64,000 nt of DNA from Laspinema olomoucense D3b. GTDB lineage: Bacteria; Cyanobacteriota; Cyanobacteriia; Cyanobacteriales; Laspinemataceae. Below, in pieces: positions 5,029 through 50,949 of this stretch (within the stretch, counting starts at the first letter, position 1; the number at the start of each line of letters is the position of its first letter). The position numbers were made by a program, and so were the translations under genes. Below the pieces are notes generated by a model. That model did no database searches, was not told the DNA's origin, and saw only the letters and a program-made list of their open reading frames with translations. Location of the stretch: contig NZ_JAMXFA010000001.1 in assembly GCF_025370785.1 (NCBI RefSeq), forward strand, positions 171,902 to 235,901, given 5' to 3'.

Positions 5029-5143
5029 TCGGTTGTTAAAGGTCTATAAAAACCCATACCCTCAAGGGTGGAGCCTCACAGGACCGAGCCTCTCCTGCGC
5101 GGGCTAAAAGCGAAAACCGACTTTTACCAACCGGATTTGGTAT
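5021..5143. repeat. MITE-like dispersed repeat, copy A
   Basis: Left end atactccattcggtt, core gtctataaaaaccc...ccctcaagggtgg, hairpin ctgcgcgggct, right end aaccggatttggtat. It shares all modules with the copies at 7765, 11273, 44806 and 46230. Confidence 0.75.
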
Positions 5144-5251
5144 GACGTGCCGTTGTGGAAGACGTCGGCGGCCCCTTTCTCGTTGGCGGCCCAGAAGGGG
5201 AGAGGGGACTGGGATGAGGTACAAATCATTTAGGATTGCTATCTATCTCCC

Positions 5252-6067: not shown

Positions 6068-6469
6068 AGTGGTTATGTAAGATAAAGCGGTACTACAACG
6101 GTAAATTGATTTATTTTAAGCCTTCAGTCGGATGACATGGAGCTGCCCCCCGGCTCAGACTATAACGGATTCTCGTTAAATTGGGAGTCCTCCTCTATAG
6201 TGTAGCAACATATAAGGTGGGGAGATTGAACCGTTTTTCGCTGAACCTTGTCAAAACTATAAGGAGTCCGTCATCCTTGTCGAAAGAGTAGATTTTTATC
6301 CATCTCCTTAATCCTTAAAATAGTGGAATTAACTTCTGCTTAAACAATTACGGTCTGCTAAGCGCTCATTATGCTGTCTCAATCTCCCCCCTCCATTCGC
6401 CAAGGGTCCCAGCAGCAGCGGGATAGTCCAATTCCCCATGACCCCCGATGCCGATGGCTGGGGAACTCC

Positions 6470-17147: not shown

Positions 17148-19370
17148 ATGAAATATAAGACAAAAACACAACCCAATCTTGCTAAAGATGCACCATTAGC
17201 AGCCCGGATGCGACCCCGGGTTTTGGAGGAATTTATAGGACAAGACCATATTTTAGGAGAGGGCCGGTTGTTGCGTCGGGCAATTCAGGCGGATCAACTC
17301 TCCTCTTTGATTTTTTATGGTCCTCCAGGGACCGGAAAAACGACCTTAGCGCGGGTAATTGCCAATAGTACCCAAGCCCAATTTATTGCTATTAATGCCG
17401 TGCTTTCTGGGGTGAAAGAGATTCGAGAGGCGATCGCCACTGCCCAACACCATCGCCAGGAATCGGCTCAACAGACGATTTTATTTGTAGATGAAGTGCA
17501 TCGGTTTAATAAATCCCAACAGGATGCGCTTTTACCTTGGGTAGAAAATGGTACAGTTATTCTGATTGGGGCAACCACAGAAAACCCCTATTTTGAAGTG
17601 AATAAAGCCTTAGTCAGCCGATCGCGAATTTTTCAACTGACTCCGCTGACTCCCACGGATTTACAGCACATTTGTGAGCAAACCTTAACGGATAGCGATC
17701 GCGGATATGGACATCTCAAGGTCCATCTGGATGCCGAGGCAAGGGCTCATCTCGTTGATGTTGCCAATGGCGACGCGCGATCGCTCTTAAATGCCTTAGA
17801 ATTAGCCGTGGAAACCACTCCCCCCGATGACACCAGCACAATTCACATCACCTTGCAGGTGGCGGAAGAATCCATCCAGAAACGGGCGGTTTTATATGAC
17901 AAGGAAGGGGATGCTCACTTTGATACCATCAGTGCTTTTATTAAAAGTTTACGCGGTTCCGACCCGGATGCAGCCCTGTACTGGTTAGCTAAAATGGTCT
18001 ATGCTGGGGAAGATCCGCGCTTTATCTTCCGGCGGATGTTGATTTTAGCCAGTGAGGATATTGGACTGGCGGATCCCTATGCCGTGGTAATTGTCAATGC
18101 TTGTGCAGAAAGCTTCGATCGCGTGGGAATGCCTGAAGGACGGTATCATTTAGCCCAAGCTGCATTATACTTAGCCACGGCTGCTAAATCTAACAGTATT
18201 ATGGGCTTTTTTGATGCCTTAGCAACCTTGGAAAAGGAACGGGAGGCAGAGGTTCCCAGCCATTTAAAGGATGCCAACCGGGATAAAAAGGGGTTCGGAC
18301 ATGGTGCGGGATATTTGTATCCTCACGCCTATCGAGATCATTGGGTGGAACAACAATATTTACCCCAAAGTTTGCAGGGACAGGTATTTTATCAACCGTC
18401 TAATCAGGGAAAAGAGGCCGAAATTGCCACCCAGGTAGCGCGACGGCGGGAAGCGCAGTTGGCGGCAATGGTGGAAGGGGTGGGGGTGGCCCCGGCAGAA
18501 GTTCTCACTTATGGTCCTACCGATCGCACTGCCGATCGCTGGTTGCAGCGCACTTTAGGACAAGTCGGTGATCGCCTCGGAGAGGTGCGCGATCGCCTGT
18601 TCGAGATGGCGCAAACCCAGCGGCATCATCTGATTTTGGATTTGAACGCCCAAAGTGGGTTACTCACTTGGGAGGCAGTCCGACGAGTCCCAGAAGGGGG
18701 AGTGTATGCGATCGCCCGTCAGGGGTCAGAAGTGAGGGCTTTAATGGAACAATCAGCGTCCCTGCCAGAATTAATGCGTCCGAGGGTGATGGCATCCTCT
18801 TTATCTCAAATCCGGCAAACCCTGGACAAACAAGCCACTGGAGTCAAATTTGACAGAATTCTGGGCAGAAATGCCTTGGTTCGGGAAGCAGATAAAATGG
18901 CGATCGCCGGGAGTTTAGCGTCTCTGCTGTCAGAGTCGGGATGGTTAGTGTTAGGGGAAACCCTGCCGCGTTATACTCAGCGCTTGTATCGGTTGTTAGG
19001 AGAGAAAGGACTCTCGGGGAATTTAGGCGATCGCCTGATGGCAGCAGAAGAGGCGATTTATCAAGACTCTACAGATCCGCTGGTGAATTGGGATGGGGAG
19101 GATTTGCAACAGTGTTTAGAATCCGTGGGGTTTCGGGTAAAGTTGCAAATCGAGCGATCGCACCAGGAATTACAGATCACCTCCGCTATGCTCGATCGCT
19201 GGTTTACTCCCTCGAAATCGGAAAAACCCAGCTATGGGGACAGATTGGCACAGAGTCTCTCGCTGACGGAGGTTCAGGCAGTAGCGGAGGCATTCCAACG
19301 CCATCTCCTCCATCAAACAGTGCAATGGGAAAGTGCGATCGTCTTCATCTGTGCAACCCTGGAGTTTTAG
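17148..19370 (+). CDS. rarA: Replication-associated recombination protein A (RarA/MgsA AAA+ ATPase) fused to a ~300 aa C-terminal domain of unknown function
   Basis: The N-terminal ~440 aa match RarA: Walker [10 protein letters not shown], Walker [13 protein letters not shown], sensor regions and the MgsA C-terminal helical domain ([30 protein letters not shown]). Ordinary RarA ends there. This ORF continues for ~300 aa more, including a Rossmann-like start [18 protein letters not shown]. The likely start is at 17148 (MKYKTKTQ). Confidence 0.8.
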
Positions 19371-19503: not shown

Positions 19504-21009
19504 TTACCCGATCCGACTCTTTGGGTTCACTTTAGCCAACAGGGTTTGGGACCGCCAGAATAATGCTCTGCCGAGCCTTTTAAAGAAGAGAGTTCCATGC
19601 TTTTTGAGCCAATAAATGCCCCAAGGGCTGAAGGCGAGTTGGACTGCATAAGCTAACTGAGATTGCCTCAATTTTTGAGCGTTTAGAAAGGTCGAAATCG
19701 CTTGGAGGTCTTCTAGGTCCTGTGGGGTTTTGCGTGCTTGCTTGAGCGCAATTACCGTGTCTAGGGAAGCAAATTTTAAACCGGCGTAGTAGAAGTAATG
19801 TTCTGGATTGAAAATGATATCGTCTTTTTGTAGTCCATTGGCGGGAAGTTGGGAGTTGTGACTGGAGGCGATCGCTAGTTGAGTAATCTGATCAAATCCT
19901 TTGTGCAGAACATCTAACTGATCGCAATCTCGGATTCCGTATGCTGCAAGTACAGCGCGATCGCTCAAACAAACCCACTCCGAATCAATCTGATTTTCTT
20001 CTAACTCTTGGCGATACTTGCTTAATTGCTCGTGAAAGCGGGAAGAGGGATTCAATTGAGTCCTATTTAAAAACCTGATACTGTTTTCGTTTAACAACAG
20101 TTCAGCCAATTCTAGGGTCTGCTCATGGGTTTGGGTGAGGTACACCGACTCAGTTTTGTAATCCCATAAGGCATTGAGCTTCTGTTTTGCTGCGATCGCC
20201 TCCTCTAACGTTTCCGATTCAAACACATAAACTCGGGTAATTCCTGAACGCGGGGGTTTCTTTTTTTGTGACCCAGTGATGAGAGCCAAATGATGCTTGA
20301 AATGAGCCATTCCTGACTTCCATAAAAAAACATCTTTTTGATAATAAATTCGGCCCTGGGCCTTCAAAATATCTTCAACTTCTTGAGATTTGCCCAGGAA
20401 TGAAGGTTCTATAATAACCAAATAAGTATTGGGCTTTAACCGACAATATTCTAAAGCCATTGCATCGGAAAATATTCCCTTAAATCCTCGGTCTTCAAAG
20501 TGGCGATAATCCAGGGGTATCGGAGGATTATTTTCGTCAATTTCTGTGGTTAATAAGGCTGCTATCTCGCAATTATATAACAGGCAAGCCACTGTGCGAT
20601 GCCCGCCATCCACCAGATAATCATTCACCATAGGGACCAAACCATTTATGGTATCAAACCCGGACTCTTTAATCGAATCTAAAACCCGGTTAAACTCTTC
20701 AATAAATGCGGTTTTTCCTTCTTTACCTGATCCATCTGGTTCTTTATATCCATTCATGGTCTTAACATTGTTACAGTAGAGTTTCAAGGCCCAATCGGAC
20801 TCTATGCCCAACTCGCGATATTTAGCATAGATATACTTAGCCATTAAATCAAACCGGTAATAATTAATGAGTTCTTTGGGGTCAACGATGGCTACGATAT
20901 TTTCATCGTGAATTTTAGTATGTCTAAGTGCCAGTATAGTCAGCTTCTGAGTGACTTCTGGGCCGACAATTTTTTGGGACTTGGGCGAAAGAGAATAAGA
21001 GCGCTTCAT
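19504..21009 (-). CDS. Hypothetical protein with ParB/Srx-like N-terminal domain (DGGHR motif), last gene of the EPS locus
   Basis: The likely start is MKRSYSL at 21009. The segment GLVPMVNDYLVDGGHRTVACLL matches the ParB N-terminal / sulfiredoxin-fold nucleotide-binding motif (GLLxPIxV...Y.LIxGxRRxxAxxL). The remaining ~330 aa have no recognisable domain. It is co-directional with, and immediately downstream of, wzx. Confidence 0.5.
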   Translation of the reverse strand: MKRSYSLSPKSQKIVGPEVTQKLTILALRHTKIHDENIVAIVDPKELINYYRFDLMAKYIYAKYRELGIESDWALKLYCNNVKTMNGYKEPDGSGKEGKTAFIEEFNRVLDSIKESGFDTINGLVPMVNDYLVDGGHRTVACLLYNCEIAALLTTEIDENNPPIPLDYRHFEDRGFKGIFSDAMALEYCRLKPNTYLVIIEPSFLGKSQEVEDILKAQGRIYYQKDVFLWKSGMAHFKHHLALITGSQKKKPPRSGITRVYVFESETLEEAIAAKQKLNALWDYKTESVYLTQTHEQTLELAELLLNENSIRFLNRTQLNPSSRFHEQLSKYRQELEENQIDSEWVCLSDRAVLAAYGIRDCDQLDVLHKGFDQITQLAIASSHNSQLPANGLQKDDIIFNPEHYFYYAGLKFASLDTVIALKQARKTPQDLEDLQAISTFLNAQKLRQSQLAYAVQLAFSPWGIYWLKKHGTLFFKRLGRALFWRSQTLLAKVNPKSRIG

Positions 21010-21028
21010 CGTTCTATATGGGTAAGGA

Positions 21029-22300
21029 TTATTTGAGGGCAACGGATAGGGAATCTTTTTTAAAGACTTTGGCGATCGCCCAGATTCCAAAGATTGGTAA
21101 AACCACCAACTGAGACAAAAGAACACCTGCCGCTACCGCCAGGATTCCCCAACGGACGCAAATCAATAACGTCAGACCAAAAATGCAGGTATAAATCAGA
21201 TTAAAGTAAAGGGTAATTTTAGTTTTTCCGACGGTATTGAGGAGGTCATTGGTAAAGATAGAAAAAGAAAAAGGCAGGACCGACAGGCAAATCAAAATTA
21301 AGATGGGAATTCCTTCTGTCCATTTTTCCCCAAATACCAATGGGACGTAAAATGGTGCTAAACCGGCCTGCAATGCAATAAATGGGATGATAATCGAAAA
21401 GGTCTTTTTCAGGCTGCTGAAATATCTAACTTTTAGCTGCTGGATATCATGCTTAACTTGACACAAGTAGGGAAACAAGGCAGTGGTGAAGGCATTAATC
21501 ACATTGCGACTAATTCCAAATCCGGCATTAAAAGCAAAATAATATAAGCCCAAGGCATCCATTCCCAACCCCCGGCCAATAATTAAGTAATCGATATTAT
21601 TCCGGACCTGCTGTAATAAACTTACCCCCAGTAAGTTTCCGCCAAAATGAACAATTTCTTTCCATCGATGTAGGCTGAAGGCTTGCGGGGGCCGCCAGGG
21701 GTGATATCGCCAAAGAACGATAATCCAGATGGGAGTCGTTAGAATCATGGGCCAAACTACGGCCCAGACTCCCATACCTAATAGGGCTAATATGACAGTG
21801 ATGGCGTTGGCAACCAGGGATTGTAAGACCTGACATAAGGCGGTAACTTTGAGGCGATTTTCTCGTTGAATTAATGCGCCATTAATCAGGTAAAAAGGCA
21901 TCATCAAGTAAATTAAAGCTGAGGCACAAATTGGCCAAACCAGTTCGGGGCTTCCGTAAAATACGCTAATCGGAAACGCTAACATGAGTAGTAGAACAAA
22001 AATGCCAAAGCATAACATCCAGTTCAGCCAATAAGAGGTATTGCTAATTACCAAGAGTTCCCCCTCTTCTGCCTGAATGATTTTCGCCCCGATTCCCTTT
22101 CTCAGGGTGAATACATTGGCGAATTCAACAACCGTAAAAATCACGGCGGTCAGTCCGTACTCGGTGGCAGTAAAGGTACGGGCCAGGGTGACCGTGGTCG
22201 CTAATCGAAAGATGCGATTAAATAATTCTGCACCCCCCATCCAGCCAACATTTTGAATAAATTGGCCGGAAAAGATCTGCTTGATTTTCTGAGTTAACAT
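21029..22300 (-). CDS. wzx: Polysaccharide flippase (Wzx / MOP-family oligosaccharide translocase)
   Basis: 423 aa protein with about 12 TM segments and the polysacc_synt-type N-terminus (FIQNVGWMGGAELFNRIFRLATTVTLARTF). It is embedded in the glycosyltransferase cluster. Confidence 0.75.
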   Translation of the reverse strand: MLTQKIKQIFSGQFIQNVGWMGGAELFNRIFRLATTVTLARTFTATEYGLTAVIFTVVEFANVFTLRKGIGAKIIQAEEGELLVISNTSYWLNWMLCFGIFVLLLMLAFPISVFYGSPELVWPICASALIYLMMPFYLINGALIQRENRLKVTALCQVLQSLVANAITVILALLGMGVWAVVWPMILTTPIWIIVLWRYHPWRPPQAFSLHRWKEIVHFGGNLLGVSLLQQVRNNIDYLIIGRGLGMDALGLYYFAFNAGFGISRNVINAFTTALFPYLCQVKHDIQQLKVRYFSSLKKTFSIIIPFIALQAGLAPFYVPLVFGEKWTEGIPILILICLSVLPFSFSIFTNDLLNTVGKTKITLYFNLIYTCIFGLTLLICVRWGILAVAAGVLLSQLVVLPIFGIWAIAKVFKKDSLSVALK

Positions 22301-22371
22301 AACAACATTAATTCCCTGGGTACGCTTTGACTGAGTTGGCAGCTAGAAAATCATCTCATTTTAATGCCGAT

Positions 22372-23373
22372 TCATGAAGGTTTATTCCCAGGCTGTAACC
22401 GGGGATCTGGGATAGAGAGGCTTTTTCGGATGGAGTGAAACAGATAATTAGCCAGGGGTTTAGGCAAGAGTTTTTTAATCAATAATTTGACCAATATTTT
22501 TTGGAAAGTCCGATCGCCAATAATCAGGCTGGGTTGCAAGGCGATCGCAGCTTTCACGTGTTTTTGGGCTTTCACCATCGCATCCCTATCTTGACTGCGT
22601 TGTAAGTAAAGTTCAGCACAATATTTATGAAAATTGGTGAAAGTCAGCGTTTTGAGATGTTGCAATTCTGGCGGTGCAGCTTTATAAGCTTTCTCCATAG
22701 CAATTAACGCTTCTCGTTCCATCACTTCAACCTTAGATGACATCGATCCAGGCATCCGCCGATAAAAAATTTGGCATTTTTTAACAACCACAAAAGGCCA
22801 TTTAGCGGCCAATCTGAGCCAATAGTCCCAATCGGCACAACCCGCACAGGTTTGGTCAAATTCACCCACCGATGCGATAGCTTCTCGCCGCATTAAGGTA
22901 TTAGATCCACTATGAATAAAATCCTGAACTAATAAATTTTTATAAACGTTTCCCGTCCATTGATATTCCAAGGAAGGAAGAAAGGTGGGAGGGGTCTGGC
23001 TATCAGTTATATCCATAAAACAAGTCCAACTATAAGCAACTCCTGCCTCTGGATGCTCCTGGAGGGCAGTATATTGTTTCTCTAACTTATCTAATGTCCA
23101 TAAATCATCCGCATCCAGAAACGCAATCAATTCTCCTTTTGCTAGGAAAATTCCCCGATTACGGGCAACACAAACTCCGCCGTTAGGATAGCTGATTACC
23201 CGGACCCGGGAATCAGAAATGCTCTCCACGACGGTTTGAGTATTATCCTGAGATCCATCATTAATGACTAACAGTTCAAAGTCTGTAAATGTTTGCTTTA
23301 AAACTGAATCAATTGTCTCTAAAATCGTGGCTTCGGCATTGTAGGCGGGGATAATTACAGAAATTTTAGGCAT
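22372..23373 (-). CDS. Glycosyltransferase family 2
   Basis: N-terminal GT-A signature ISVIIPAYNAE...LLVINDGSQD...DADD. Confidence 0.9.
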   Translation of the reverse strand: MPKISVIIPAYNAEATILETIDSVLKQTFTDFELLVINDGSQDNTQTVVESISDSRVRVISYPNGGVCVARNRGIFLAKGELIAFLDADDLWTLDKLEKQYTALQEHPEAGVAYSWTCFMDITDSQTPPTFLPSLEYQWTGNVYKNLLVQDFIHSGSNTLMRREAIASVGEFDQTCAGCADWDYWLRLAAKWPFVVVKKCQIFYRRMPGSMSSKVEVMEREALIAMEKAYKAAPPELQHLKTLTFTNFHKYCAELYLQRSQDRDAMVKAQKHVKAAIALQPSLIIGDRTFQKILVKLLIKKLLPKPLANYLFHSIRKSLSIPDPRLQPGNKPS

Positions 23374-24995: not shown

Positions 24996-26129
24996 TTAGG
25001 AGCCGCAAACCCTGCAAGCCGTCGGTTCCCCTAAAGGAGGGGCTAACGGACGACGCGGGGTTCCCCCACCCCCGATGCTACTGGGGGAATTATTTTTTAC
25101 GATCGCCAGGGCTTGAAATAACTGATTTACATCATCGAAGAAATCCCCGGAAGTGCCGCCAAATGTATATCCATAGGTCGCCAGAAATTCTTCTTTAACA
25201 CCGTTTTCGATGGCGATATTATGGGTATCAATCGCCGTATCGTCTACAATATAACCTCCATAATCTTGAAGGGCCTCGAACAATTTTTTCCCCGGAATAG
25301 TTTTTAGTCCCAGACTTTCTGCGGTAACATCTGGGGGAATGGCAAGCAATGCACCCATGACTAAATCGGGATTGGAACCCCCATACCGGGAACGGCTATC
25401 GGGATTAAAAGCATAAGCATCAGCCCGAATCGCAGGCCATCGATAGCCCGGGGGATTATTATAGAGATATTTATGAGCGTAAATTAATAACTTTAAGGCA
25501 TGGCGAAGGGGAGGCGCTTCGGGTAGCAGTTCTCCCAGGCGAATGGTCCCGCCAATGCTTGATAATCCGGACCCCCCTTGTCCTCCAGTGATTCCCGGTC
25601 CATAAATATCCTCTTGGCCCGGGGTTGGATGTCCGAATACTGGGCCCCCGGCTTCGCACCGAGTGAGAGGATTCATTTGAATCAATGTTCGCCCATCTGG
25701 GGCTAAAAAGGCAGCAGCATTATTGGGGGTTTTGGTGGGGGTCGCGTCGGATAGAATTAAATTGTGCGGAACGTGAATTTCTCCGAGTAATTCTCCTCCC
25801 AGTTCGCAACGCCCCGGCCCCCAATTTAGGGGAAGATACCAAGGAACAACGGGGTCGCTATCGGTGGTGACAATGTAGTAGTTCACTTCGGCTGAAACCC
25901 AGGGTGATGGACCAATTTCCGCTGGAATATATTCCGCTTGGGACCCAATTGGCCGATTCCAAATGCTATCGCAGGAAAAGGGCCATTGATGTTTATTTCG
26001 GGGCCTACCGGGACCGCAGGCGTTACTATAGCCGTTACTATTTGCAAACAGGAGAGTTAGGCTCGTCACAGTTGCCCCCAGCAGCATGATTAATAAATAA
26101 ATAATTTGCCTTTTTTGGTTCATCCCCAC
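24996..26129 (-). CDS. Secreted/anchored hypothetical protein, Gly-rich, within the EPS locus
   Basis: An N-terminal hydrophobic anchor (IIYLLIMLLGATVTSLTLLFA) is followed by Gly-rich segments (GPGITGGQGGSGLSSIGG) and a GGGGTPRRP tail. No catalytic motif is recognised. It lies between the GT2 and GT1 genes on the same strand. Confidence 0.5.
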   Translation of the reverse strand: MGMNQKRQIIYLLIMLLGATVTSLTLLFANSNGYSNACGPGRPRNKHQWPFSCDSIWNRPIGSQAEYIPAEIGPSPWVSAEVNYYIVTTDSDPVVPWYLPLNWGPGRCELGGELLGEIHVPHNLILSDATPTKTPNNAAAFLAPDGRTLIQMNPLTRCEAGGPVFGHPTPGQEDIYGPGITGGQGGSGLSSIGGTIRLGELLPEAPPLRHALKLLIYAHKYLYNNPPGYRWPAIRADAYAFNPDSRSRYGGSNPDLVMGALLAIPPDVTAESLGLKTIPGKKLFEALQDYGGYIVDDTAIDTHNIAIENGVKEEFLATYGYTFGGTSGDFFDDVNQLFQALAIVKNNSPSSIGGGGTPRRPLAPPLGEPTACRVCGS

Positions 26130-26380
26130 TTTTCGGAATCTTGTGATTAATTAAGATTAATATTTTCCATAATTGCAGTTTTGAGGAGTTCTTAGCTAAC
26201 TTTTTTCTTTTTTGGGACCATCTCCTGAAAGGCCCGAAGACCTGACATCACCCCCCTGCCCTCCTCCCCAAGACACAGGGGAGGGGGGTGAACTATTCTA
26301 AATTGAGATGCTCCCACTTTTTTCAGCATTTCCTAAAAAAATAACCGCAGGATTGAAAAGCATAAAAAACTGATTTGTGG

Positions 26381-31085: not shown

Positions 31086-31646
31086 TCTATCGAGTCATTA
31101 TAATTATTTCCCTCGACCTTGCTGTCGAGCTGGGCACTCTGTGACTCTATCTGCTTTACCTATCCATCTAATCATTAAACACTCTATTGACTGCTAGTAT
31201 TTGACCCCGGACACCGGCCCCTCCTGTAGTGAGCAAACCTGATCCAGAAAACTCACGCCAAGGCTTAAACAAATCATCGGGCAAAAACTAAGTTTACCTC
31301 AAAATAGACCCGGTTCATTTGAGGACTGAATTCTCCTCATTATAAGCTTTATGTTTTGTTTTTTTAGTTCTTTATTAAAAATTCATACAGTGAGTCTAAT
31401 CTCCTGACCTAGGGGTACTCAACCCTGGGACATAATCAGGGTTTACCGATGGTGTTCCCTCCCCGGGGCGTTTGACCCTAGATTGTCGGGTTTTTTCCGT
31501 CCCTGGGCCAATCCACCCTTATAAAAAGGCCCAATTTTTATAGACTTTACCTACAATATCCGTGATTGAGGGTTATGGAGGGGCAATCCTCTGGCTGTAC
31601 CCCATGAGCTTGCCAAAGGGTTACCCCTGCTTCCAGTCTCCGGGGG

Positions 31647-33101: not shown

Positions 33102-34328
33102 TCAACTGGGGTAGGGGGAAGAGATGGCGATCGCCTTGCGGTACTGCCAACGGTGCAGCATTTGGCGATAGACTTCCTGGACTATACTGGGTGCGCTATA
33201 GGGTTGAACGGTTCGTACACAAGCTTCTGAAGAATACAGGTCCGGATTCGCCAGGACTCGCCGCAAGGCATCGGCGATCGCCTCTGCTGTTCTTTCTTTG
33301 CAGACTACCCCACTATCGGGTGAGAGCAGTTTAGGAGTTTCACCACAGTCTGTTGTCACCACAGGAGTGCCGCAGGCAAGGGCTTCGAGAACGGTGACGG
33401 GTAAGCCTTCATAAACACTACTGAGCAAAAAGGCACTGGCTGCGCGATACAGTTGAGCCAATCGGTCCGAGTTGACAGCACCGAGGAGGGTAACGCGATC
33501 GCCCAAGTTCAACGCTTGGATCTCACGTCGCACCTGTTCCTCTAACTCTCCGGCTCCAGCAATTAGCAAATGGACTTGGGGATCAGCCAAGGCGGCGATC
33601 GCCTGAATCCCTAATACCGGGTCTTTTTGCGGATGCAATCGTCCCGCAAATAATAGGAATCGCACCGTTTCGGGTAACCCCAGCTCTTGAGCCAGTTCCC
33701 GGCGTTTGATTTCCCGTTCTTCCCGCTTATCGGGATAGAAACTCTCGGGATCAAATCCATTTTTTAAGAAAGCCACCCTTGGCGCTAATTCCGGATAGGC
33801 TTCCCGATAATGCTGCGCGGACTCGCTATTACAGGAATACACCTGCTCGAATTGGCTAATCAGTAACTTTTCTAACGCAAAATATACTTTCGGAAACTGT
33901 TGCCATAGAATCGCTTTCCCCCCCAAGTTGCGATCCATTTGCTTGCGAATATCGTTGTGAATAAAAAGGGTTTTATCTCCCGCCCAATTTAGACTGGCTA
34001 AAGTGGGTTCTATTCTATGAAAGTGCATAAAATCTGAGGCAAAATTATGCCGCATTAAGGAGGCTCCGTAGGCAATAGTCGTCGGAATCAACTTCCGGAC
34101 ATTATCCTCGCCTACTGCAATCACCGGCATGAATTGAATCGCTTTTCCGGCATATTCCGTCCATTTCCATACCCCCAAGGCAGATCCCGGCGCTCCGGTC
34201 CCTACTACCCTTACCACAAATTCATCGGGAGCATATTTAATAAAAGAACGAATAACCGTCTGAATACCACCAATACTGCTATCCCACGGATTAAATTGAT
34301 AAAAAATTGTCAGAACTGGCTTGCTCAT
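33102..34328 (-). CDS. Glycosyltransferase family 1 (GT4-like)
   Basis: GT-B fold motifs (LSSVYEGLPVTVLEALACGTPVVTTDCGE). It is the first gene of the same-strand EPS cluster. Confidence 0.8.
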   Translation of the reverse strand: MSKPVLTIFYQFNPWDSSIGGIQTVIRSFIKYAPDEFVVRVVGTGAPGSALGVWKWTEYAGKAIQFMPVIAVGEDNVRKLIPTTIAYGASLMRHNFASDFMHFHRIEPTLASLNWAGDKTLFIHNDIRKQMDRNLGGKAILWQQFPKVYFALEKLLISQFEQVYSCNSESAQHYREAYPELAPRVAFLKNGFDPESFYPDKREEREIKRRELAQELGLPETVRFLLFAGRLHPQKDPVLGIQAIAALADPQVHLLIAGAGELEEQVRREIQALNLGDRVTLLGAVNSDRLAQLYRAASAFLLSSVYEGLPVTVLEALACGTPVVTTDCGETPKLLSPDSGVVCKERTAEAIADALRRVLANPDLYSSEACVRTVQPYSAPSIVQEVYRQMLHRWQYRKAIAISSPYPS

Positions 34329-36475
34329 GCCTTAGTCGAAACTCCCTCCTTTTTGGAATGCTGTAACTCATAGGATGATTACCCTCAGTTACCTGAAGAT
34401 CTCGGTTCACTGTTTCCCTAGATCAATCTAGGGGTTGACAAGCATCATCCCTAAATGGTCAATCCCTTGAGGCATTCCCAGAAAATTCTGGAGAATCATC
34501 GCCTCAGGATGTACCACCCTAAGTGTTTATGACAGATTCCCTTTAACAGGAGAAAGCCCTTATTTCCCCCTCTCTCCTCGGTCCCTACGCGAGGAAAAAA
34601 AATTTGTTCAACTATTAAGCTTGATGAACACTAATCGCCGTTGTCTTTTCTGAGAACACAAGGAGCGTCATTTTTGGATTCAACAGCATTCACTGTAATA
34701 ACACCTAAAGATAACTCGCCCCATATTTGTCACGTACTTTACAACCCTATCCGACTTACCAAGGAAACTTTATCAACAGTTCTTAAATTTTTGATAAAGT
34801 TTGCTCGTCTTGACATCTCTGGATGAATTCCGACACTTAAAGTGTAAACCTGAATTCTTTCCCTACCCTAGGACAGCTCCAATATCAATCTGACATTCAG
34901 AAACTGTACGCCCTAAAGTTGTTGAAACTCAAGCATTTTTGCCAAACTCACTTTCTAGGCCATCCGCCCCAGGCCAAGGCCCTTGCTCGGAAACCCTGTG
35001 GTAGGCAACCTACCTGGGAGTTACTCTTCCCTTATCTATTTTACGATCACCGGAGTTAGGCCCTTTATCCCTTCACTCTTCTGGGTCAAGCACTGCCCTT
35101 TAAAATTGTGCTTAATCCCTGCTGCTTCCCCGATATGGGGCGTTAGCTTTTATAAGAATCTGCGATAACTTTAACAGCAAGTAAAGAAAAAGTAAAGGGG
35201 GTAAAACACGCTTTGCTTCTCAGAGCAGTTATATTGGGTGAAAACCTTTACCCCCAAGGGTTTCAGCTCTCACCCTTATGAAAAAACCTACATCAATTTT
35301 CCATCCCAGGAGATGTGGGAGCCACTGGAACGCTATCCCGGTTGATGAGCGGTCTGATTTTCCTCCTAGAGTATATCATTTTGATACAAAAAGCAGATAT
35401 ACCGACCAGCCCTGTATTAGTTCTACACAGGTTGAAAGGCTAAAAATGTGGGTACAAATGGTAGGCCACCCTCCCTATATCGGGTTAGGATAGGCTGTTG
35501 ATGGGTCGGGTCCGGAATTTAGGATCAAGTTGACGGTTGGGGAGGCGGGGAAATGGGAACCAAGCATCGGAGGAGCGATCGCCTATAGTCATTGAAAAAA
35601 GCCGGGGATGCAGGGGAATTGCTTTGGTTATTAATTTCTGGATTGTTTTATTGACATCGGTGCGATCGCCTACATATTACAAGCCTTTGTAAGCATAATA
35701 CACCTCTTGCAAAAAAAAGGATTGATCTCCCTTTCCCCCCCTTATTAAGGGAGGCTTTAAAGAATTTTGCAAGAGGTCGATTGATACCCCGATGCTAAAC
35801 TTTGAGGCTGGAGGCGATAATATTTCCCGGGAGAAATCGTGGTAAAATATGGATCAAACATCTTTAAGAGTTCCTGTTCGATATCATCTACTGGGGAAGA
35901 GATAGGCCCGGAAGAGGAGCAAGGGAACAATTGAAAGACAGATAATGGGCGTAGTCTGATCAGTGGGTAAAAGTGGAGTCCGACTCTCCCAGGGAGGCGA
36001 TCGCTTCTCGGGTAATTAAGGGATTGGAACCAGTGGCCCAAAAATTAGTAAGTAACAAATCTGCACAAACATTTGCCGAAAAAAGGAAGAGAACACTCGG
36101 ATATTTGCTTGCTCATTTTGGGTTAAAATAACTTTGTCATACGGGTATCCCGGACTTTCAAGTCCTGTCAAGCCTCTCAAGAAATAGAAAAGGGTACGGG
36201 CTCTCGGTCAGGACCGATGGCCCCCCAAGGCGGAGGGAGTCAGTTTGAGGGGTGTACTGACTTGCATCCTATCTTGCTCCCGGGTCTAGGTTACTAACAC
36301 GGCTCATTGTGAGCCAGATTTATGCCCTCGTTAAGGGGGATTCGGGGTTGCTTGGGGAAAGGAGGAACGGAGGTCAGAGGATGCCTGCTTCTATATTTTG
36401 GTAGAGGTGCTTTGGGGGTTCCTGGGACTACGATCGAAACTGCAGAAAAATATAAATACACAGGAATAAGGAGTT

Positions 36476-38041
36476 ATGAAATTCGTATCGGATCCACCGA
36501 GTGCGGTTAAAATCGAGAAAATGAAAACCCGATTACGATCGCAACATCCCCTGCTACGGTCTAAAGGGATCGATCGCACCCGCTTTGAGCTGGATGATGG
36601 GAAATCAGGCGATCGCGAGTTTTCCTTTTTGGTCATTGGGGATAGCGGATCCGGACGCCACATCAAAAACAACCCGCAACGCCAACTCGCCAAACAAATG
36701 CTCCAACACCAGGACAACTGCCGATTTATTCTGCATACCGGCGATGTCATTTATCTGGTAGGTTCTAGCGAATATTACACCCAAAACTTCATCGAACCCT
36801 ATCGGGAATTTATCATGGGTGGAGAACATCCCCATCGCATTCCCTACAACAAAATGGTGTTCAAACTGCCGATTCTCCCCGTCCCGGGTAACCACGATTA
36901 CTATGACATCCACCTGTTGTACGGGGCACTCGCCCAAGCTGCCCAACCCCTGCGCCATCTCTTACGGGGGCACTTCAATCTCGATGTAGGATGGCATGGT
37001 TCTGAGCAAGGGAAAGCATACGCCCGAGCCTTTCTCGACTACCTCAAGGACATTCCCGAGTTCCAACTCGGCGCTCATTTCGATCGCTATTACACTGCCC
37101 AGACGGACACCGGACGCTGTTTACGCTATCAACCCCGAAAGTTTACCCGATTACCGAATCGCTATTATACCTTTCGCTATGGTGGCATCGACTTTTTTGC
37201 CCTAGACTCTAATACCTTTAATGAACCACCCCCCCTTCCCGACACCAAAGAAGGGCACCAATACCGGCGCTGGCTGGAAAAACGTCGGGATGAGTTGGAA
37301 CGTCAGGAGGTCGAACTTACCGAGAGATCCAAAGAATTCAACCCCGATAATCCCCATCATGCCGAGCAACTCGATGAGCTTGAAACTAAGTTAGAGCAGC
37401 TCGAAGAAATGCAACTGGATATTGAGAAACAACTGCAATCCGATGAAAACACCGTAACCGATATTGAACAACTGGATTGGTTCAAACAACGACTGATTCA
37501 CTCTTGGAATACCCCGGAAGTCCGGGGACGAATCGTATATTTCCACCATCCCCCCTATGTGACTGAGGCAACGAAGTGGGATCAAGGTCAGACCCTTGCC
37601 ATTCGCCGTCAACTCCGGTGGGTTTTAGATCAGGTGGCGCAGGAGGTGGGCGACCAAACCCAAGGGCGGCCCCTTTTGGACCTGGTTCTCACGGGTCACG
37701 CCCACTGTCTGGAGTATTTACAAACCGGAGATACCGGACACGCGGACTCCCATATCCATTGGATTGTCTGTGGCGGTAGCGGATATAGTTTGCGCCGTCA
37801 GCGAGAAGAGGGTCCGGACTTAAAGGAGATATTTCCTGAAAGTGAGGAGGAGCGCCTGGTGGCCCGCTCGAAATTGTTTGTCGGGCGCAAAGGTCGGGGT
37901 TTTGATAAGCAGCGCCCCTACTCCTTTTTGCGCGTTGATGTCCTCGATGGGTCTCCCCCCAAGTTGCGGATACAACCCCTGATTTCCGAACGAACTCACC
38001 ATAAATGGCACGATCGCCAGGGGGAAGCGTTTGTAATTTAA
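36476..38041 (+). CDS. Metallophosphoesterase (calcineurin-like phosphoesterase) with coiled-coil insertion
   Basis: The metallophosphatase motifs occur in canonical order: GDSGSG (GDxG), GDVIY (GDxxY), GNHDYYD (GNHD), GHAHC (GHxH). A Glu/Gln-rich coiled-coil segment (RRWLEKRRDELERQEVELTERSKEF...LEQLEEMQLDIEKQLQ) is inserted between the motif blocks. A good RBS (aggag) precedes the ATG. Confidence 0.8.
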   Translation: MKFVSDPPSAVKIEKMKTRLRSQHPLLRSKGIDRTRFELDDGKSGDREFSFLVIGDSGSGRHIKNNPQRQLAKQMLQHQDNCRFILHTGDVIYLVGSSEYYTQNFIEPYREFIMGGEHPHRIPYNKMVFKLPILPVPGNHDYYDIHLLYGALAQAAQPLRHLLRGHFNLDVGWHGSEQGKAYARAFLDYLKDIPEFQLGAHFDRYYTAQTDTGRCLRYQPRKFTRLPNRYYTFRYGGIDFFALDSNTFNEPPPLPDTKEGHQYRRWLEKRRDELERQEVELTERSKEFNPDNPHHAEQLDELETKLEQLEEMQLDIEKQLQSDENTVTDIEQLDWFKQRLIHSWNTPEVRGRIVYFHHPPYVTEATKWDQGQTLAIRRQLRWVLDQVAQEVGDQTQGRPLLDLVLTGHAHCLEYLQTGDTGHADSHIHWIVCGGSGYSLRRQREEGPDLKEIFPESEEERLVARSKLFVGRKGRGFDKQRPYSFLRVDVLDGSPPKLRIQPLISERTHHKWHDRQGEAFVI

Positions 38042-38946
38042 GTCCCTCCCCCGGTTTTGCGATACAGGAACCCGGCTTTTTCCACTTGTCCCCGGTTGAC
38101 TGCTTCATCCAGCAGGATGGTTGTTGCTTCTATATTGAGATTCAGAGCAACGGCAACCTCGGGCACTGTGATGGTTTCCCAGTGGGTGAGATATGCGATC
38201 GCATCGGTGATTGAGCGCTGAGGTTCGAGATCCGGCGCAATGTGGGTGATGGCCTCTCTTAGAACCGAATAGGGCCGATATCCCATCATCAGCAGCGATC
38301 GCCCCGAGTTCGGGCGCAGCATGATGCTGGGAAACCGCGCGATCCCGCAATAGCGCATTTCTTTGAGATCCTGGCGGAATGCCTCCATAGAATCGGGATG
38401 GTCCAAATCCCTCTCAAAGCGATCGCCATCAAAGCCGAGTTCCGGGTTCAATTCCGCCCCCAGTTCCAGCAGAACCTCCCTTTGGGCAATATTGCGGCCC
38501 TCCAACATCACCGCCTCGCGCAGTCGCCGCAAATAGGACTCTCCAATATCGGGGCCTTGTTGTGAGGCAGCTTTCACGGCAATACAGGCGGGATAAGAAG
38601 AGGTAGGAGGGTTTTTCACCCAGATTCCTTCGTTAATGGGCATTCCCGTGAGATGTCGCACCTGAATCCAAACTGGACCCATCTGCACGGGTCGGGAAAT
38701 ATCGTTGAGGGGGTCGCTAAACTGCTCCCAATCCCGAAGGAGTCCCCCCATTGAATAGCGATAGACCAGGCGATCGCCAAACTCGTAGCGCAAGCGTCGC
38801 CACTGGGGTTCTACCGCCCAACTCCAGGAACAGAGGGGGTCGGTATAGTAGATGATTTCAAGAGGTGCCCCAGGAGGCGAGTTTTGGCCCAGGGTTTGGG
38901 GGTCCGGTGATTTCTCCAAGGAGGCGATCGGGGGATAAGTTTGCAT
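38038..38946 (-). CDS. DsbA-like thioredoxin-fold protein (FrnE/2-hydroxychromene-2-carboxylate isomerase-like) with C-terminal HTH-like tail
   Basis: The LEIIYYTDPLCSWSWAVEP N-terminus matches the DsbA-like start of the thioredoxin domain, with CxxS/W in place of CxxC. The ~80 aa C-terminal extension resembles a winged helix. Confidence 0.6.
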   Translation of the reverse strand: MQTYPPIASLEKSPDPQTLGQNSPPGAPLEIIYYTDPLCSWSWAVEPQWRRLRYEFGDRLVYRYSMGGLLRDWEQFSDPLNDISRPVQMGPVWIQVRHLTGMPINEGIWVKNPPTSSYPACIAVKAASQQGPDIGESYLRRLREAVMLEGRNIAQREVLLELGAELNPELGFDGDRFERDLDHPDSMEAFRQDLKEMRYCGIARFPSIMLRPNSGRSLLMMGYRPYSVLREAITHIAPDLEPQRSITDAIAYLTHWETITVPEVAVALNLNIEATTILLDEAVNRGQVEKAGFLYRKTGGGT

Positions 38947-39244
38947 GATTAATGACCTTTATTATAAATAGGGGTGGAAGAGAGGATGGCGATCGGGATT
39001 TTGATAATTTTTAAACCAGGCGATCGCCCGGTTAGCTTATGTTGTCTTGAACCTGACACCATGATAATTCCCCTTTCTTCCGGGGAAAGGGGAATTTCAT
39101 CTCGCTTGGGGTTAAGCCTTCCGGGTGGGATAAGATTCAACGGCGATCGCAGCGATCGCCTTGAATCCCGACTCCCCCCAGTTAATGAGCCCGCGCTTTT
39201 CTGGCTTCGTCCGTAGAACCCGACCCTTCAGGGTGCCGATTTTC

Positions 39245-40225
39245 TTATATCATCGGCGATTTCGGACTACTCAGCTCAGTTTGCGGGTAGGAAGACCACT
39301 GATTCGGCCCTGGAGGAGTAGCCGATTTCACCTCCGCAGAACGCTTCATACTCAGCTCTTGTTCCTTTTTGAATACCTGTTCTTCCGTCAGATTCGTCCC
39401 TTCACTCGTCTGATTGCGGGTCATCCCTTCCGTCTTGATGACATAATCGAGAGGATCCTCTACATACACCCAATTTTCCCCAGCAGGCCAAGTCCCTTGA
39501 CCTTCATTCCAAGGTCCGCGAGCGCTGGTTCCATTGGACATATTAAAGTACAAATGACTGTAGCGCGGGTCAGCTTGTAGCACTCCCGGCGGGAAATTCG
39601 GTTCGATGGTTTCCAGGGCAGCGGCAAACATTTTGTAGTGAGAAACTTCCCGCGTCATTAAGAAGCGCAGAGTGTCTTTTACATCCGGATCATCGGTAAA
39701 TTGCAGCAAATATTCATACACAATTTTCGCACGAGACTCGGCGGCGAGATCTGAGCGCAAATCAACGGTCAAATCCCCATTGGCATTGACGTAGGTTCCT
39801 GACCAAGGCACACCTTGACTATTAGTGACCGTTGGACCACCGCCAGATACTGCTAATAGTTGCGGTCCCGTCATCGCAATTTGATGGATGAGTTCTTCCT
39901 GGCCCGCTTTTTTTCCACTCAGAAACTGCATAATCTCGCTGTTTTCTGCGGCGTTCTTGAGATCCCCATTGATGCCATCTAACAACATGGTAATCAATGC
40001 ACCAACGATTTCCAAATGGCTAAATTCTTCCGTAGCCACATCCATCAACAGGTCGTATTTTTCCGGGTAGGCTTGCCGCGCTCCAAACGCCTGGACAAAA
40101 TACTGCATGGCTGCCTTCAGTTCTCCGTTAGGACCGCCAAACTGTTCTAGCAGTAAGGTTGCAAAGCGGGGATCGGGCTTGGACACACGGGCATTAAATT
40201 GTAATTCTTTGACGTGATAAAACAT
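39245..40225 (-). CDS. Manganese catalase (ferritin-like, non-haem catalase)
   Basis: N-terminal signature MFYHVKELQFNARVSKPDPRFATLLLEQFGGPNGELKAAMQYFVQAF...EEFSHLEIVG matches the Mn-catalase family. Confidence 0.9.
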   Translation of the reverse strand: MFYHVKELQFNARVSKPDPRFATLLLEQFGGPNGELKAAMQYFVQAFGARQAYPEKYDLLMDVATEEFSHLEIVGALITMLLDGINGDLKNAAENSEIMQFLSGKKAGQEELIHQIAMTGPQLLAVSGGGPTVTNSQGVPWSGTYVNANGDLTVDLRSDLAAESRAKIVYEYLLQFTDDPDVKDTLRFLMTREVSHYKMFAAALETIEPNFPPGVLQADPRYSHLYFNMSNGTSARGPWNEGQGTWPAGENWVYVEDPLDYVIKTEGMTRNQTSEGTNLTEEQVFKKEQELSMKRSAEVKSATPPGPNQWSSYPQTELSSPKSPMI

Positions 40226-41514
40226 TTGATTTCCTTGGGATAAAATTCTACTTCTTTAGGAGGAGGGCAATTTTTGATTGGACCTTATGATTTAATGAAA
40301 AAATAACCCGCAGGTTAAGTTTTTAGGTCAATCCTCCTCACCTAAATAACCAGGTTAGCGACTGAGCTATCCTTCAGTTTCTACCCCAGGGATGAACCTG
40401 ATTCATAAATTGTCTACTGGATCTACTCCAATCCAAATCTTTTGCCGTTAACTCACCATTATCTAATTAAGCCCATGAAGTTAGTTTCGACTCAAGGCTT
40501 AGGCATCCCATCGGTATCCCCAGATACGGGCGAGGAAGGGAATTCCCCTTCTCTTTCGGTTTGATGCTCTAAAAAAGAGGAATTGCGCAACAGAATTCCA
40601 TCTACAGAGGGAGGAGATTAATTGAAAATTAGAGTATCCTAAGCCTGATGAAAAGGTTACAGAATCTTAATTGAGATTAAGGTGTAGATAACCTTTGAAT
40701 TAACCTGTCTGAGAGATTGTTGGAAGGGGTCAACTCAGAGTAAACAGCAGGGTGAATGATTTCGGTGTAATGGCTCTTTAAACCAAAATAAAGCCTGGTT
40801 TCTCTTTTGCCTGGGTCCGGGGGTTCATCCGCAAAAGCTCCACCTTTGAGGGGGATGGGTTTTAGGAAAACTCAGGGAGGATAAAAGGGAACCCGCACCG
40901 CGAGAGGGGCCTGAAGGGGTGGAAAATTCCTGGGGAGGCGGCTACTCTTGGGCCCTCTAAGCCAAATGACTCCGGCCCCGAGCCTAGTCAGCAGTGGATC
41001 CTAGACTCTGGCTTTCCGGGCGATCGCAAATCTGTTTCAATCCGGCAAAGCCACCCCAAACATGAGAAAATATAATCCTAGGTCTATAGAATAACCACAA
41101 CCCGCTTGAGTTGGCCTGTCCCTGAGTTCTCTAGGGGTTCTAATCCCGAGTCCAAATAAACCGGACAAATAGGGCAACAACAGGATTCAGTCCTTTTGAA
41201 AACACCGGAGGCGATCGCCCTTCCGGCTTTCCCAGGATTGCTGCCAAATCGTCTGATGGCAGGTACAATCGGTACAGTATCCATTCCCAGGAGCCAGACA
41301 CTCCCATCGGAGAGTCTTTTTTGTAGTCATTGTTAATCCGGAGCAACAAAGAAGCGTGTTTAATTCAGAAGCCGACCCCAAATCAGCATTCCTCAAAGGA
41401 TTTGCCCTCAAGGGTCAGCCCTGGAAAATAGGTCTCCTGTTGCCGGTTTTAACAATCTCAAATTCCCGACTCTGCGCTATTACTTATCCTCATTCCCTAT
41501 CTTAAATATCTTTC

Positions 41515-47240: not shown

Positions 47241-47658
47241 GTAAAGCCTTGAGATTAGCCGAAACAGGGGCTTGCCGTGCAACTCCCCTGCCCCGATGAA
47301 GGGAGATGACCCGGTTGTAGTCAAGAGGGTTTCGTGGGGGGCGGAGTCTCTGAAAAAATAACCGGGGCAGGTAAAGGCTCTCCCAAACCTCCCTAATTCC
47401 CACCCTGTAAAGGTTTTGGCTCATGGGGCCGGGGTTAACCTATACCTTAAGAGGTATTTTTGGAAAAAAAGTCCAAAAACCCTTGACATCTTCTTTTCAA
47501 ACGGTAACAATGAATACAGAAAGTAAATCGTTCATCCCTCACAACAAGCCAGTTCATCTCTAAACGGCATGAACCGGGCAAGGGACGGAAGTAGGGAGTC
47601 ACTCCCGAAGGAACGCGCCTCATCCTACAAACAAGACTCTATTTAGGAGGCGAAAAAC

Positions 47659-47982
47659 ATGAAACTTTCATATCGTGGCACCACTTACGAATATACTCCC
47701 GCAGAAGTTGAGGTTACCGAAGGCGAACTCGCCGGTAAATATCGCGGGTTAGATTGGAAATTCTGCAATCAGAAGAAAGCGCCGGTCCAACAAGCGACCG
47801 TGGAACTGAAGTATCGGGGAGTTGCGTTGACCACTGGTGAACCGCAGTCCGCAAAAACCTCGGCACCGGAACAAGCTCGTCGTCTGATGATGGATCGGCA
47901 AGTTCAAGGGGCAAAACGCCAGCGGTCCATGTTGAGCCGTTTGACTGCTGAACTCAAGAGCATTCCTGTTCTCGCCCATTAA
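47659..47982 (+). CDS. DUF4278 domain protein (cyanobacterial small protein)
   Basis: Has the characteristic MKLSYRGTTYEY...KYRG start of DUF4278. Confidence 0.7.
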   Translation: MKLSYRGTTYEYTPAEVEVTEGELAGKYRGLDWKFCNQKKAPVQQATVELKYRGVALTTGEPQSAKTSAPEQARRLMMDRQVQGAKRQRSMLSRLTAELKSIPVLAH

Positions 47983-48156
47983 GGGAAAGTGATTCCATAC
48001 CTAGCCTTGTCCGCTAGAGGCTAGGTACAAATTCTCAACAACTTAACTAATTTCAATATCTCCCGTCTGGGGGGTATTTTTTTTAGGGGCTTTTACAGGG
48101 CGAAGGATGAAAACTAGAGCATGGGTACAGTAACGGGAAGACCCTAAAAATGAGTA

Positions 48157-48171
48157 ATACCAAATCCGGTT
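48157..48171. repeat. Solo terminal-repeat remnant of the MITE-like family
   Basis: An exact ataccaaatccggtt occurs here without the adjacent core. Confidence 0.4.
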
Positions 48172-48378
48172 TCTCTTCTGGCTACTGAGCGGGAATCCTA
48201 GAGCAGAGGAAGGGTTATTTATATGTCAAAATTAAGTACAGATCAGCAGTCGGTTAAGCTTTGGTCAGTGGTTCAAGCTCATCACCCTGGATTAATCGCC
48301 GATCGCCGGGAAAAAATATCTAGACCCGTCTGTGAGCGATCGCCCATCGCCTGTCCTGTTTTTAGAACCTAGCCCTCG

Positions 48379-50127: not shown

Positions 50128-50169
50128 AGGGAAAAATCAGTTGGTTTTCCTCCTATTCAGGGTGCAGCA

Positions 50170-50604
50170 ATGTTAAAAAAAATCACAGTAGCAACAGCAG
50201 TCGGATTGATTCAACTGGGGATATTCCCTCCTATTGCCTTTAGTGCTAATCCAGAGCATCTCTTGCAGTTACAAAGGGGTAATGAATGTCGAAATTGTGA
50301 CCTCAGTGGGTTCGATCTCACCGGGTTAGATTTACGGGGAGCGGATTTAATGGGTGCAAATTTGCGAAATGCTATTCTTAGCAAAGCCAATCTTATGGCT
50401 GCCAATTTAACCGCCGCTGATCTTCAAAATGCCATTTTGATTGAAACGAATTTGTTTAGTAGTAATCTCAGTTATGCCAATCTCAGCGGGGCGAATTTGC
50501 AAGATGCGATTTTAGTTAGCGCTAATATCAAGGGCACCGACTTTACAGGTGCGCTTCTTCAGGGCAGCAGTGGCGTCCAAGTCGGGCGTCAAGGCTTAGA
50601 ATAA
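50170..50604 (+). CDS. Pentapeptide-repeat protein with signal peptide
   Basis: A signal peptide (ITVATAVGLIQLGIFPPIAFSA) is followed by A(D/N)LxG/A(N/D)LxxA pentapeptide repeats. Confidence 0.85.
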   Translation: MLKKITVATAVGLIQLGIFPPIAFSANPEHLLQLQRGNECRNCDLSGFDLTGLDLRGADLMGANLRNAILSKANLMAANLTAADLQNAILIETNLFSSNLSYANLSGANLQDAILVSANIKGTDFTGALLQGSSGVQVGRQGLE

Positions 50605-50949
50605 ACGCGTCAGGGGACTAGGTTATTGGGACAAAATTACATCAAGTACATCAAGGGGACAAGAAACGAGGTTGCTTTCCAACATCTCTAAGCCGGTGCA
50701 AGAAATGAGGGCGAGAGGGCCGGTACAATTTTTGCTCCAAAGGACAATAAACCGGGTTTCATCCCCCTGATGGATTGGGAATTGGCCGTATCTTATCAAC
50801 AAACCCGTTTTCTGATCTTTACCGGAACGACGCTCCCCAACGCAAATTTAGGGTTGTTTAATTTAATCGTTAAACCGAGGTGATCACCCGCGCTAACCCT
50901 GGCTAAATCTCCCGGATTTAAGTCCTAAAAATTACTCAAATCGTGCCAA

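Follow-up and report, generated by a model that had tools for sequence, protein, structure and literature searches.

A 2.1-kb intergenic region beside a Laspinema exopolysaccharide cluster is probably a composite of gene decay and a short conserved leader

Features of the locus

The region studied here lies at positions 34329-36475 of a 64-kb window from Laspinema olomoucense D3b (the window being the whole 64,000-nucleotide (nt) stretch of contig NZ_JAMXFA010000001.1 that was analysed). It is a divergent intergenic region, flanked on one side by a GT4 glycosyltransferase gene (33102-34328, − strand), whose product matches Pfam Glycos_transf_1 at 6e-39 and which leads an exopolysaccharide (EPS) unit, and on the other by a metallophosphoesterase gene (36476-38041, + strand). 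From the letters alone, the region had originally been predicted to be the leader or promoter of a ten-gene EPS operon, possibly holding a long 5′ untranslated region (UTR), a regulatory small RNA (sRNA), or what is left of a deleted gene or a mobile element. Our comparison with related loci indicates that the region is very probably a composite, made up of a gene-loss scar, a GT2 glycosyltransferase pseudogene with a MITE-like insertion (MITE, miniature inverted-repeat transposable element), a neutral spacer, short conserved upstream regions and a GT4 leader. Decaying DNA seems to account for about four-fifths of the region and the constrained part for about 350 nt; what is found is ordinary gene decay and one uncharacterised, clade-restricted leader. 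The features are as follows.

34329 to ~34675, − strand: block far better conserved than neutral sequence, probably holding the GT4 promoter and a structured leader of ~276 nt
34329-34604, − strand: putative 5′ leader (~276 nt) of the EPS unit that GT4 heads, from conservation and fold
34605-34675, − strand: promoter-proximal block with a -10-like hexamer nATAnT (34616-34611), from conservation
~34676-35518, no strand: fast-evolving, indel-ridden spacer with no detectable gene, from the alignment of relatives
35519-36130, − strand: relic of a GT2 pseudogene (GT2-a), codon ~125 to the stop (3′ two-thirds), from homology to intact orthologues
35701-35780, no strand: MITE-like hairpin of 80 nt with terminal inverted repeats ACCTCTTGCAAAA / TTTTGCAAGAGGT and a C/G-rich core
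36131-36144, no strand: junction of a ~3.9-kb deletion relative to the arrangement of L002 (a related locus, see below), from alignment end points
36145-36376, no strand: remnant of an ancestral divergent upstream region, common only to L002, from blastn and alignment
36377-36475, + strand: metallophosphoesterase upstream region of ~100 nt with a TATATT box, from conservation

As originally predicted, no open reading frame (ORF) above 94 amino acids (aa) lies wholly inside the region on either strand, and the stops number 30-38 per frame. The region is the longest gap of the window, but the original description of the genes as otherwise tightly packed is only partly apt, since further gaps of 1289, 1054, 908 and 822 nt are also found. 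Likewise, the shift towards AT that had been noted is real (GC 45.0%, where the window averages 48.2% and coding DNA 48.7%) but corresponds to the ordinary non-coding level here (46.1% in the other intergenic DNA of the window) and is no foreign signature. Searches of the region for tRNA, tmRNA and tandem repeats found none.

The GC content below that of the flanking genes, together with the one MITE-like element inside, could be taken to mean that the stretch was horizontally acquired or is the remnant of a large mobile element. We regard this as extremely improbable: the GC equals that of other intergenic DNA of the window, every part of the region has syntenic homologues in Laspinema relatives, three HIP1 sites (GCGATCGC) are present as in the host genome, and blastx and Pfam revealed no transposase or integrase remnant. 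The 64-kb window has 96 HIP1 sites, a cyanobacterial hallmark.

A GT2 pseudogene at the scar of a lost gene module

The region was compared among seven Laspinema/Oscillatoria relatives (L002, L003, L005, L006, L077, L117 and L118). The syntenic loci with a GT4 gene are L002 (Laspinema sp. D2d), L005, L006, L077 (Oscillatoria sp. HE19RPO), L117 and L118, and L003 contributes the metallophosphoesterase side only, with the relic present and no GT4 match. L122 and L123 are near-identical strains. The metallophosphoesterase protein is identical in GCA_025370715.1, which comes from a near-identical Laspinema strain, and GCA_025370815.1, and it is 88-93% identical in Laspinema/Oscillatoria genomes, and the GT4 closest to that of the window is that of L117, with 93% aa identity.

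A BLASTX search for decayed genes against the ORFs of the relatives detected the GT2 relic at 35519-36130. The relic is matched by tblastn and blastx to intact GT2-a genes in L002 (5224-6156, 310 aa) and L117 (1862-2800, 312 aa): the L117 protein aligns to it in three segments, which are collinear and jointly reach E = 4e-37, and blastx of the relic against L002 gives 7e-23. The intact GT2 proteins match PF00535 at about 1e-38, and in both loci the GT2-a orthologue is syntenic with the relic, lying on the same strand between the GT4 leader and spacer and the rest of a gene module. Nucleotide alignment shows the relic to be heavily damaged; the 5′ ~370 nt, which is the part coding for the catalytic domain, has been lost, and the remainder carries a 37-nt deletion, an 80-nt insertion, further indels of +3, −1 and −18 nt and an in-frame TGA. 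The 94-aa ORF mentioned above (35757-36041) is one frame of this relic, being 59% identical to residues 197-254 of the L117 protein (E = 9e-19). No GT-A catalytic domain is recognisable in the relic, and the 94-aa ORF has no Pfam match; this absence is expected for a 3′ fragment and confirms the loss of function.

In L002, the interval that separates the GT4 unit from the metallophosphoesterase gene holds four − strand genes whose identities were assigned by Pfam: GT2-a (310 aa), GT2-b (344 aa), a Wzx-type flippase gene (422 aa) and GT2-c (329 aa). L117 has intact Wzx, GT2 and GT2 genes at the same place. Window position 36130 corresponds to about position 5803 of L002 and window position 36145 to L002 position 9674, and the L002 content missing at this junction comprises the 5′ part of GT2-a, GT2-b, the Wzx-type flippase gene and GT2-c. 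The relic is absent from L077, L005, L006 and L118, where the junctions are different, while L003 retains a relic that has decayed differently. The truncated, frameshifted GT2-a copy that remains shows that the lineage of the window lost the GT2/Wzx module; a gain of the module by L002 and L117 is hard to square with such a copy.

The original suggestion that a deleted gene or a mobile element had left a relic was therefore right for ~1 kb of the region, where the window has the GT2 pseudogene and relatives have intact GT2/GT2/Wzx(/GT2) genes. By the test originally proposed, namely an ordinary gene at this place in relatives and a pseudogene that BLASTX can detect, the regulatory reading fails for this distal half.

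A truncated, frameshifted piece of a GT2 gene where a Wzx/Wzy-type cluster ends, together with close relatives that have the module intact, as a relic or cleanly deleted, is reminiscent of variable O-antigen, capsule and EPS clusters. Compared with these, nothing here is unusual; in the present case a diverged second GT2 and Wzx pair stands at the other end of the cluster. This second pair, a GT2 of 333 aa and a Wzx-type flippase of 423 aa at 21029-23373 (− strand), has 66% and 61% aa identity to GT2-c and Wzx of L002. The cell may have tolerated the loss thanks to this pair, which could be a paralogous module or one that has been relocated.

An 80-nt hairpin inserted in the pseudogene

A long inverted repeat had been pointed out in the region and correctly placed, with CCTCTTGCAAAA at 35703-35714 and TTTTGCAAGAGG at 35765-35776. 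Its arms can be lengthened to 18 nt, with 89% complementarity overall and a perfect core of 12-13 nt, and they belong to the 80-nt insertion in the GT2-a pseudogene, which has no coding capacity and a strong predicted RNA fold (−42.2 kcal/mol, z = −5.15). The element is present in L122 and L123, and the same site is empty in L002, L003 and L117. Alignment of empty and filled sites places the insertion at the centre of AAT/ATT (empty, CAAT/ATTG; filled, TAAT-80 nt-ATTG, the slash marking the insertion point) and reveals no target-site duplication at the hairpin. L002 has a sister copy at 18315-18442 that shares both ends but whose G/C-palindromic core is larger, and the same terminal repeats delimit elements of 116-163 nt in the Nostoc loci L042 and L071; the 64-kb window has one copy.

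MITEs and small hairpin-forming dispersed repeats are known in bacteria, for example the cyanobacterial Nezha and Elhai's small dispersed repeats. The element of the window shares with MITEs its size of 80 nt, the lack of coding capacity, terminal inverted repeats of 13-18 nt, a strong hairpin fold, an orthologous site that is occupied in some genomes and empty in others, and related copies elsewhere in relatives, but differs from them in showing no visible target-site duplication and only one copy in 64 kb. The hairpin behaves like a MITE or palindromic element and is a candidate member of a transposase-defined MITE family. It is a small mobile-type insertion in a dead gene and no regulatory hairpin of the operon. 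A full-text literature search for the terminal repeat sequence returned only irrelevant primer matches. Small G/C-palindromic repeats (CCCCCTTAAGAAGGGGG ... GGAGGAATAAATGTT) were also seen, tandem-nested in L003 at ~6400-6600 and within the L002 sister copy, which suggests that such nested mini-repeats form a family in the L003 and L002 genomes.

A neutral spacer and a conserved block beside GT4

Between the relic and the block beside GT4, the spacer is only 52-77% identical to the relatives, at or below the third-codon-position identity of the flanking genes. Its deletions overlap but have different end points: L077 lacks 34697-35019 and L117 lacks 34676-34894. Even between near-identical strains it changes quickly, L123 having 16-nt and 14-nt indels there; across the whole region L123 differs from the window by 14 substitutions and 2 indels, and none of these 16 changes falls in 34329-34700. 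An AT-rich palindrome in the spacer (34762-34805) is dispensable in relatives. A counterpart of ~1.2 kb, also non-coding, separates GT2-a from GT4 in L002 and L117. Blastx of the spacer against all ORFs of 121 related loci recovered only short ORFs from the aligned intergenic DNA of relatives and no protein-coding gene, and Pfam on its six-frame translations found no match; neither search revealed a decayed gene in 34650-35530. The spacer thus appears to evolve at about the neutral rate.

The sequence nearer to GT4 behaves differently. In the four relatives that could be compared at both, the predicted leader is 77-89% identical and the spacer 52-77% (Fisher p 3e-5 to 1e-15), and across six relatives the leader identity is 76.5-90%. 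Over 34329-34696 the identity is 85-86% in L005, L077 and L006 and 76% in L002, against GT4 third-codon identities of 0.80 (L005), 0.82 (L077), 0.73 (L006) and 0.555 (L002). The independent spacer deletions of L117 and L077 halt at 34675 and 34696, and in the alignment the homology of L118 begins at the -10-like hexamer at 34616-34611, which reads AATAGT in the window, GATAAT in L118 and GATAGT in L005. It thus seems that only the ~350 nt adjoining the GT4 start codon is under selection, and this conservation points to a GT4 promoter with a putative -10-like box at 34616-34611. Because the deletions stop at 34675 and 34696 and the L118 homology begins at the hexamer, transcription would start near 34604, which would give a leader of ~276 nt. 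The original assignment of the region as EPS leader or promoter is accordingly plausible for the ~350 nt by the GT4 start, which is conserved and has a stable sense fold, but not for the rest.

The leader is confined to the Laspinema/Oscillatoria clade, as judged by nhmmer of GT4 loci, and a reverse search with a profile of the Nostocales upstream region left the window unmatched. In other cyanobacteria, the GT4 orthologues (metagenome loci L080-L116, and L121) usually have an ORF-free upstream stretch of 0.6-0.9 kb, reaching 2.4 kb in L121. Eleven Nostocales-type loci have their own conserved upstream block of 200-420 nt, with no sequence relationship to the Laspinema leader and no Rfam match.

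Several specific identities of the block were considered and rejected. Long + strand ORFs lie over the leader in relatives, but they merely follow from the conservation of the nucleotide sequence, and in the window this stretch is interrupted by stops. The motif of the SigJ J-Box is GGGaAtacT, in which the A and T are invariant (PMC6495340); its − strand counterpart in the window, GGGAATCTG at about 34538-34530, is without the final T, and only GG is left in L002, which does not support a SigJ-dependent promoter. A JUMPStart/ops leader was discarded in turn, the ops element GGCGGTAG having no − strand match with at most one mismatch in 34329-36475.

Predicted fold of the leader and its alternatives

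The sense strand of the leader is predicted to fold with −96.6 kcal/mol (z = −3.39), and none of 200 shuffled sequences folded as well. The predicted structure starts with a 5′-terminal hairpin (34602-34568), after which a pyrimidine tract (34559-34548) pairs with a purine-rich, Shine-Dalgarno (SD)-like tract AGGAGGGAGUUU (34350-34339) and closes a branched domain of ~200 nt. This layout, a 5′ hairpin followed by a long-range closing helix, recurs in the independent single-sequence folds of 6 of 7 orthologues. When seven sequences were aligned, 91.8% of the cells were paired and double-change pairs numbered 9, compared with 3.9 ± 1.6 in shuffles, suggesting a modest covariation above shuffle controls. 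The tetramer AGGG occurs 10 times on the − strand of 34329-34607 (3.85 ± 1.45 in dinucleotide shuffles), mostly as U/A-AGGG-A/U; this enrichment could mark a protein-binding motif or merely G-rich stems.

Whether the ~350-nt block acts as RNA is less certain than its conservation. The block might act at the DNA level only, as a promoter with operators such as the perfect 18-bp palindrome CCCTAGATCAATCTAGGG at 34416-34433, whose outer arms are kept in 7 of 7 sequences; we consider this a serious though not a favoured possibility. In its favour, most predicted pairs are invariant or changed on one side only, and the covariation term of RNAalifold is slightly unfavourable. Further observations weigh against our reading. 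The covariation comes from 7 closely related sequences only. The closing helix shows one-sided changes only, with no double compensatory change, and a distance of 17-25 nt separates the purine tract from the AUG, far for a true SD sequence. With nhmmer, run with and without filters, no leader was detected upstream of GT4 orthologues of 69% identity or less. As to the spacer, it could be an older relic decayed past detection.

On the other side, the conservation is continuous for ~290 nt to the start codon, which is far longer than usual operator clusters. The sense fold also surpasses the antisense fold, both in z-score (−3.39 vs −2.44) and in the consensus fold (−81 vs −55 kcal/mol), and most one-sided changes exchange G-C or A-U for G-U or the reverse, so that pairing is kept only on the sense strand. 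Furthermore, L005 has an inverted loop in the 5′ hairpin but retains the stem (GCGTAGGGACC -> GGGTCCTACGC; L005 about 8500-8550, corresponding to window 34568-34602), a change that is a DNA-level flip within an inverted repeat. We therefore keep to the interpretation of the block as a promoter and a structured leader. Its transcription start, RNA structure and regulatory role are all predictions, whereas the pseudogene, the deletion, the polymorphic insertion and the contrast in conservation are demonstrated.

No Rfam family accounts for the fold. The covariance-model scan that had been proposed, done with Rfam 15 (including the cyclic di-GMP (c-di-GMP) riboswitches) at the gathering threshold, returned nothing in 34000-36800; when relaxed, its sole match was Hrs13 at chance level (E = 0.22, 18.7 bits against a threshold of 52 bits). 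The orthologous leaders of eight related loci gave no match in the region at either setting. A regulatory sRNA, one of the options first put forward, finds no support in these empty scans.

More generally, the region could encode a free-standing sRNA or small protein, as it is long, partly conserved and non-coding, contains a + strand TTGACA-16-CATATT at 35651-35678 and has a 23-codon ORF in the leader. This appears very unlikely, however: the only Rfam match is the chance-level one, the site at 35651-35678 lies inside the pseudogene and is unconserved in L002, and no terminator-like site follows any of the sRNA candidates in a consensus scan. Neither L006 nor L002 keeps the 23-codon ORF unbroken, and a leader peptide was rejected on the same ground.

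Long structured leaders of EPS operons are known, such as the CsrA-bound pgaA leader, c-di-GMP riboswitches and the JUMPStart/ops leaders. The predicted Laspinema leader is like these in preceding the first polysaccharide gene by several hundred nt of conserved, stably folded sequence, in having its ribosome-binding region predicted to be paired and in being rich in AGGG/GGA-type motifs (10 vs 3.9 expected). It is unlike them in having no Rfam model and no sense-strand ops element and in being confined to the Laspinema/Oscillatoria clade.

Metallophosphoesterase side and promoter-like boxes

Window 36145-40472 aligns with L002 9674-13967 at 85.6% identity (blastn), and within it 36145-36475 aligns with L002 9674-10000, just upstream of the metallophosphoesterase gene. 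The part nearest to this gene, 36377-36475, aligns in 8 of 8 relatives compared, and in six the homology begins at 36371-36383; presumably it is the metallophosphoesterase promoter and 5′ UTR. The remainder, 36145-36376, holds the lone − strand TTGACA (36171-36166), conserved in L002, and is a candidate for promoter function.

The TTGACA-type -35 boxes of the original prediction are present, on the + strand at 34435, 34810 and 35651 and on the − strand once, at 36166-36171. However, three of the four face the wrong way because the EPS genes are on the − strand, and these are not conserved. Promoter-like hexamer pairs in the region number 4, which is the chance level (3.8 ± 2.4 in shuffles), and a consensus promoter scan found no − strand promoter near GT4.

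The conserved TTGACA raises the possibility that the whole 2.1 kb is one long EPS leader or 5′ UTR, with a − strand start near 36170 and read-through of relic and spacer into GT4. In favour of this, 36145-36376 has been kept together with its − strand TTGACA, in L002 it precedes the gene that opens the longer operon, and a consensus scan found no terminator-like sites on the − strand of the region. We nevertheless think it quite unlikely, since ~1.5 kb of the region is at or below the neutral level and has been deleted, with varied end points, in L077, L117, L005, L006 and L118, which keep the GT4 unit. In addition, the -10 position downstream of the TTGACA at 36171-36166 is poor in the window, and any read-through would be a by-product with no selected function.

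Proposed history and role

On the composite reading, the ancestral Laspinema EPS cluster would have run on upstream of GT4 with a GT2, GT2, Wzx module (with a third GT2 in L002) that reached almost to the metallophosphoesterase gene. A deletion of ~3.9 kb in the lineage of the window removed most of this module and left the 3′ two-thirds of one GT2, which later gained frameshifts, a stop codon and the 80-nt hairpin. The ~0.85-kb spacer between the relic and the GT4 leader was non-coding already in the intact arrangement. As for the leader, its 5′ hairpin may protect the transcript, and the long-range helix may hold the SD-like purine tract against the pyrimidine tract, which would allow post-transcriptional control of the first EPS gene.

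To our knowledge, little is known about the control of EPS operons in filamentous cyanobacteria. A more specific proposal is that the leader is a new cis-regulatory RNA of the Laspinema clade, switching translation or stability of the EPS operon via the helix 34559-34548/34350-34339 in response to a ligand, a protein or an sRNA; the AGGG/GGA motifs, enriched 2.6-fold in the leader, would be candidate protein sites. In this full form the proposal is speculative, and we think it rather unlikely. Since GT4 genes of Nostocales carry an unrelated conserved upstream block of 200-420 nt, long leaders may be a general, unrecognised control point of the cyanobacterial EPS locus.

For annotation, most of the apparent giant leader turns out to consist of a pseudogene, the scar of a deletion and a small mobile hairpin; it is best annotated as such and is unfit for wholesale mining for promoters or sRNAs. 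The locus also shows that very close Laspinema strains gain and lose glycosyltransferase and flippase modules rapidly, probably with changes in their exopolysaccharide, and the ~350-nt block before the first glycosyltransferase gene is a testable candidate for an EPS control element.

Other observations in the window and relatives

The "ten-gene EPS operon" is interrupted by gaps of 561 nt (31086-31646) and 251 nt (26130-26380), and because of these the EPS cluster probably consists of more than one transcription unit. Pfam found no domain in the genes at 24996-26129 and 19504-21126, the latter being the last EPS gene. Other long ORF-free gaps of the window, at 40226-41514 (1.29 kb), 4344-5251 (0.91 kb) and 50128-50949 (0.82 kb), may hide similar relics or RNAs. 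Within another ORF-free gap (47325-48378), a glutamine riboswitch (RF01739) was detected at 47527-47619 on the + strand with 52.9 bits, against a gathering threshold of 35, and the same riboswitch is present in L077 at 20898-20990. L077 also has a single CRISPR-DR28 match at 18545-18568 (− strand), with 35.7 bits against a gathering threshold of 35.

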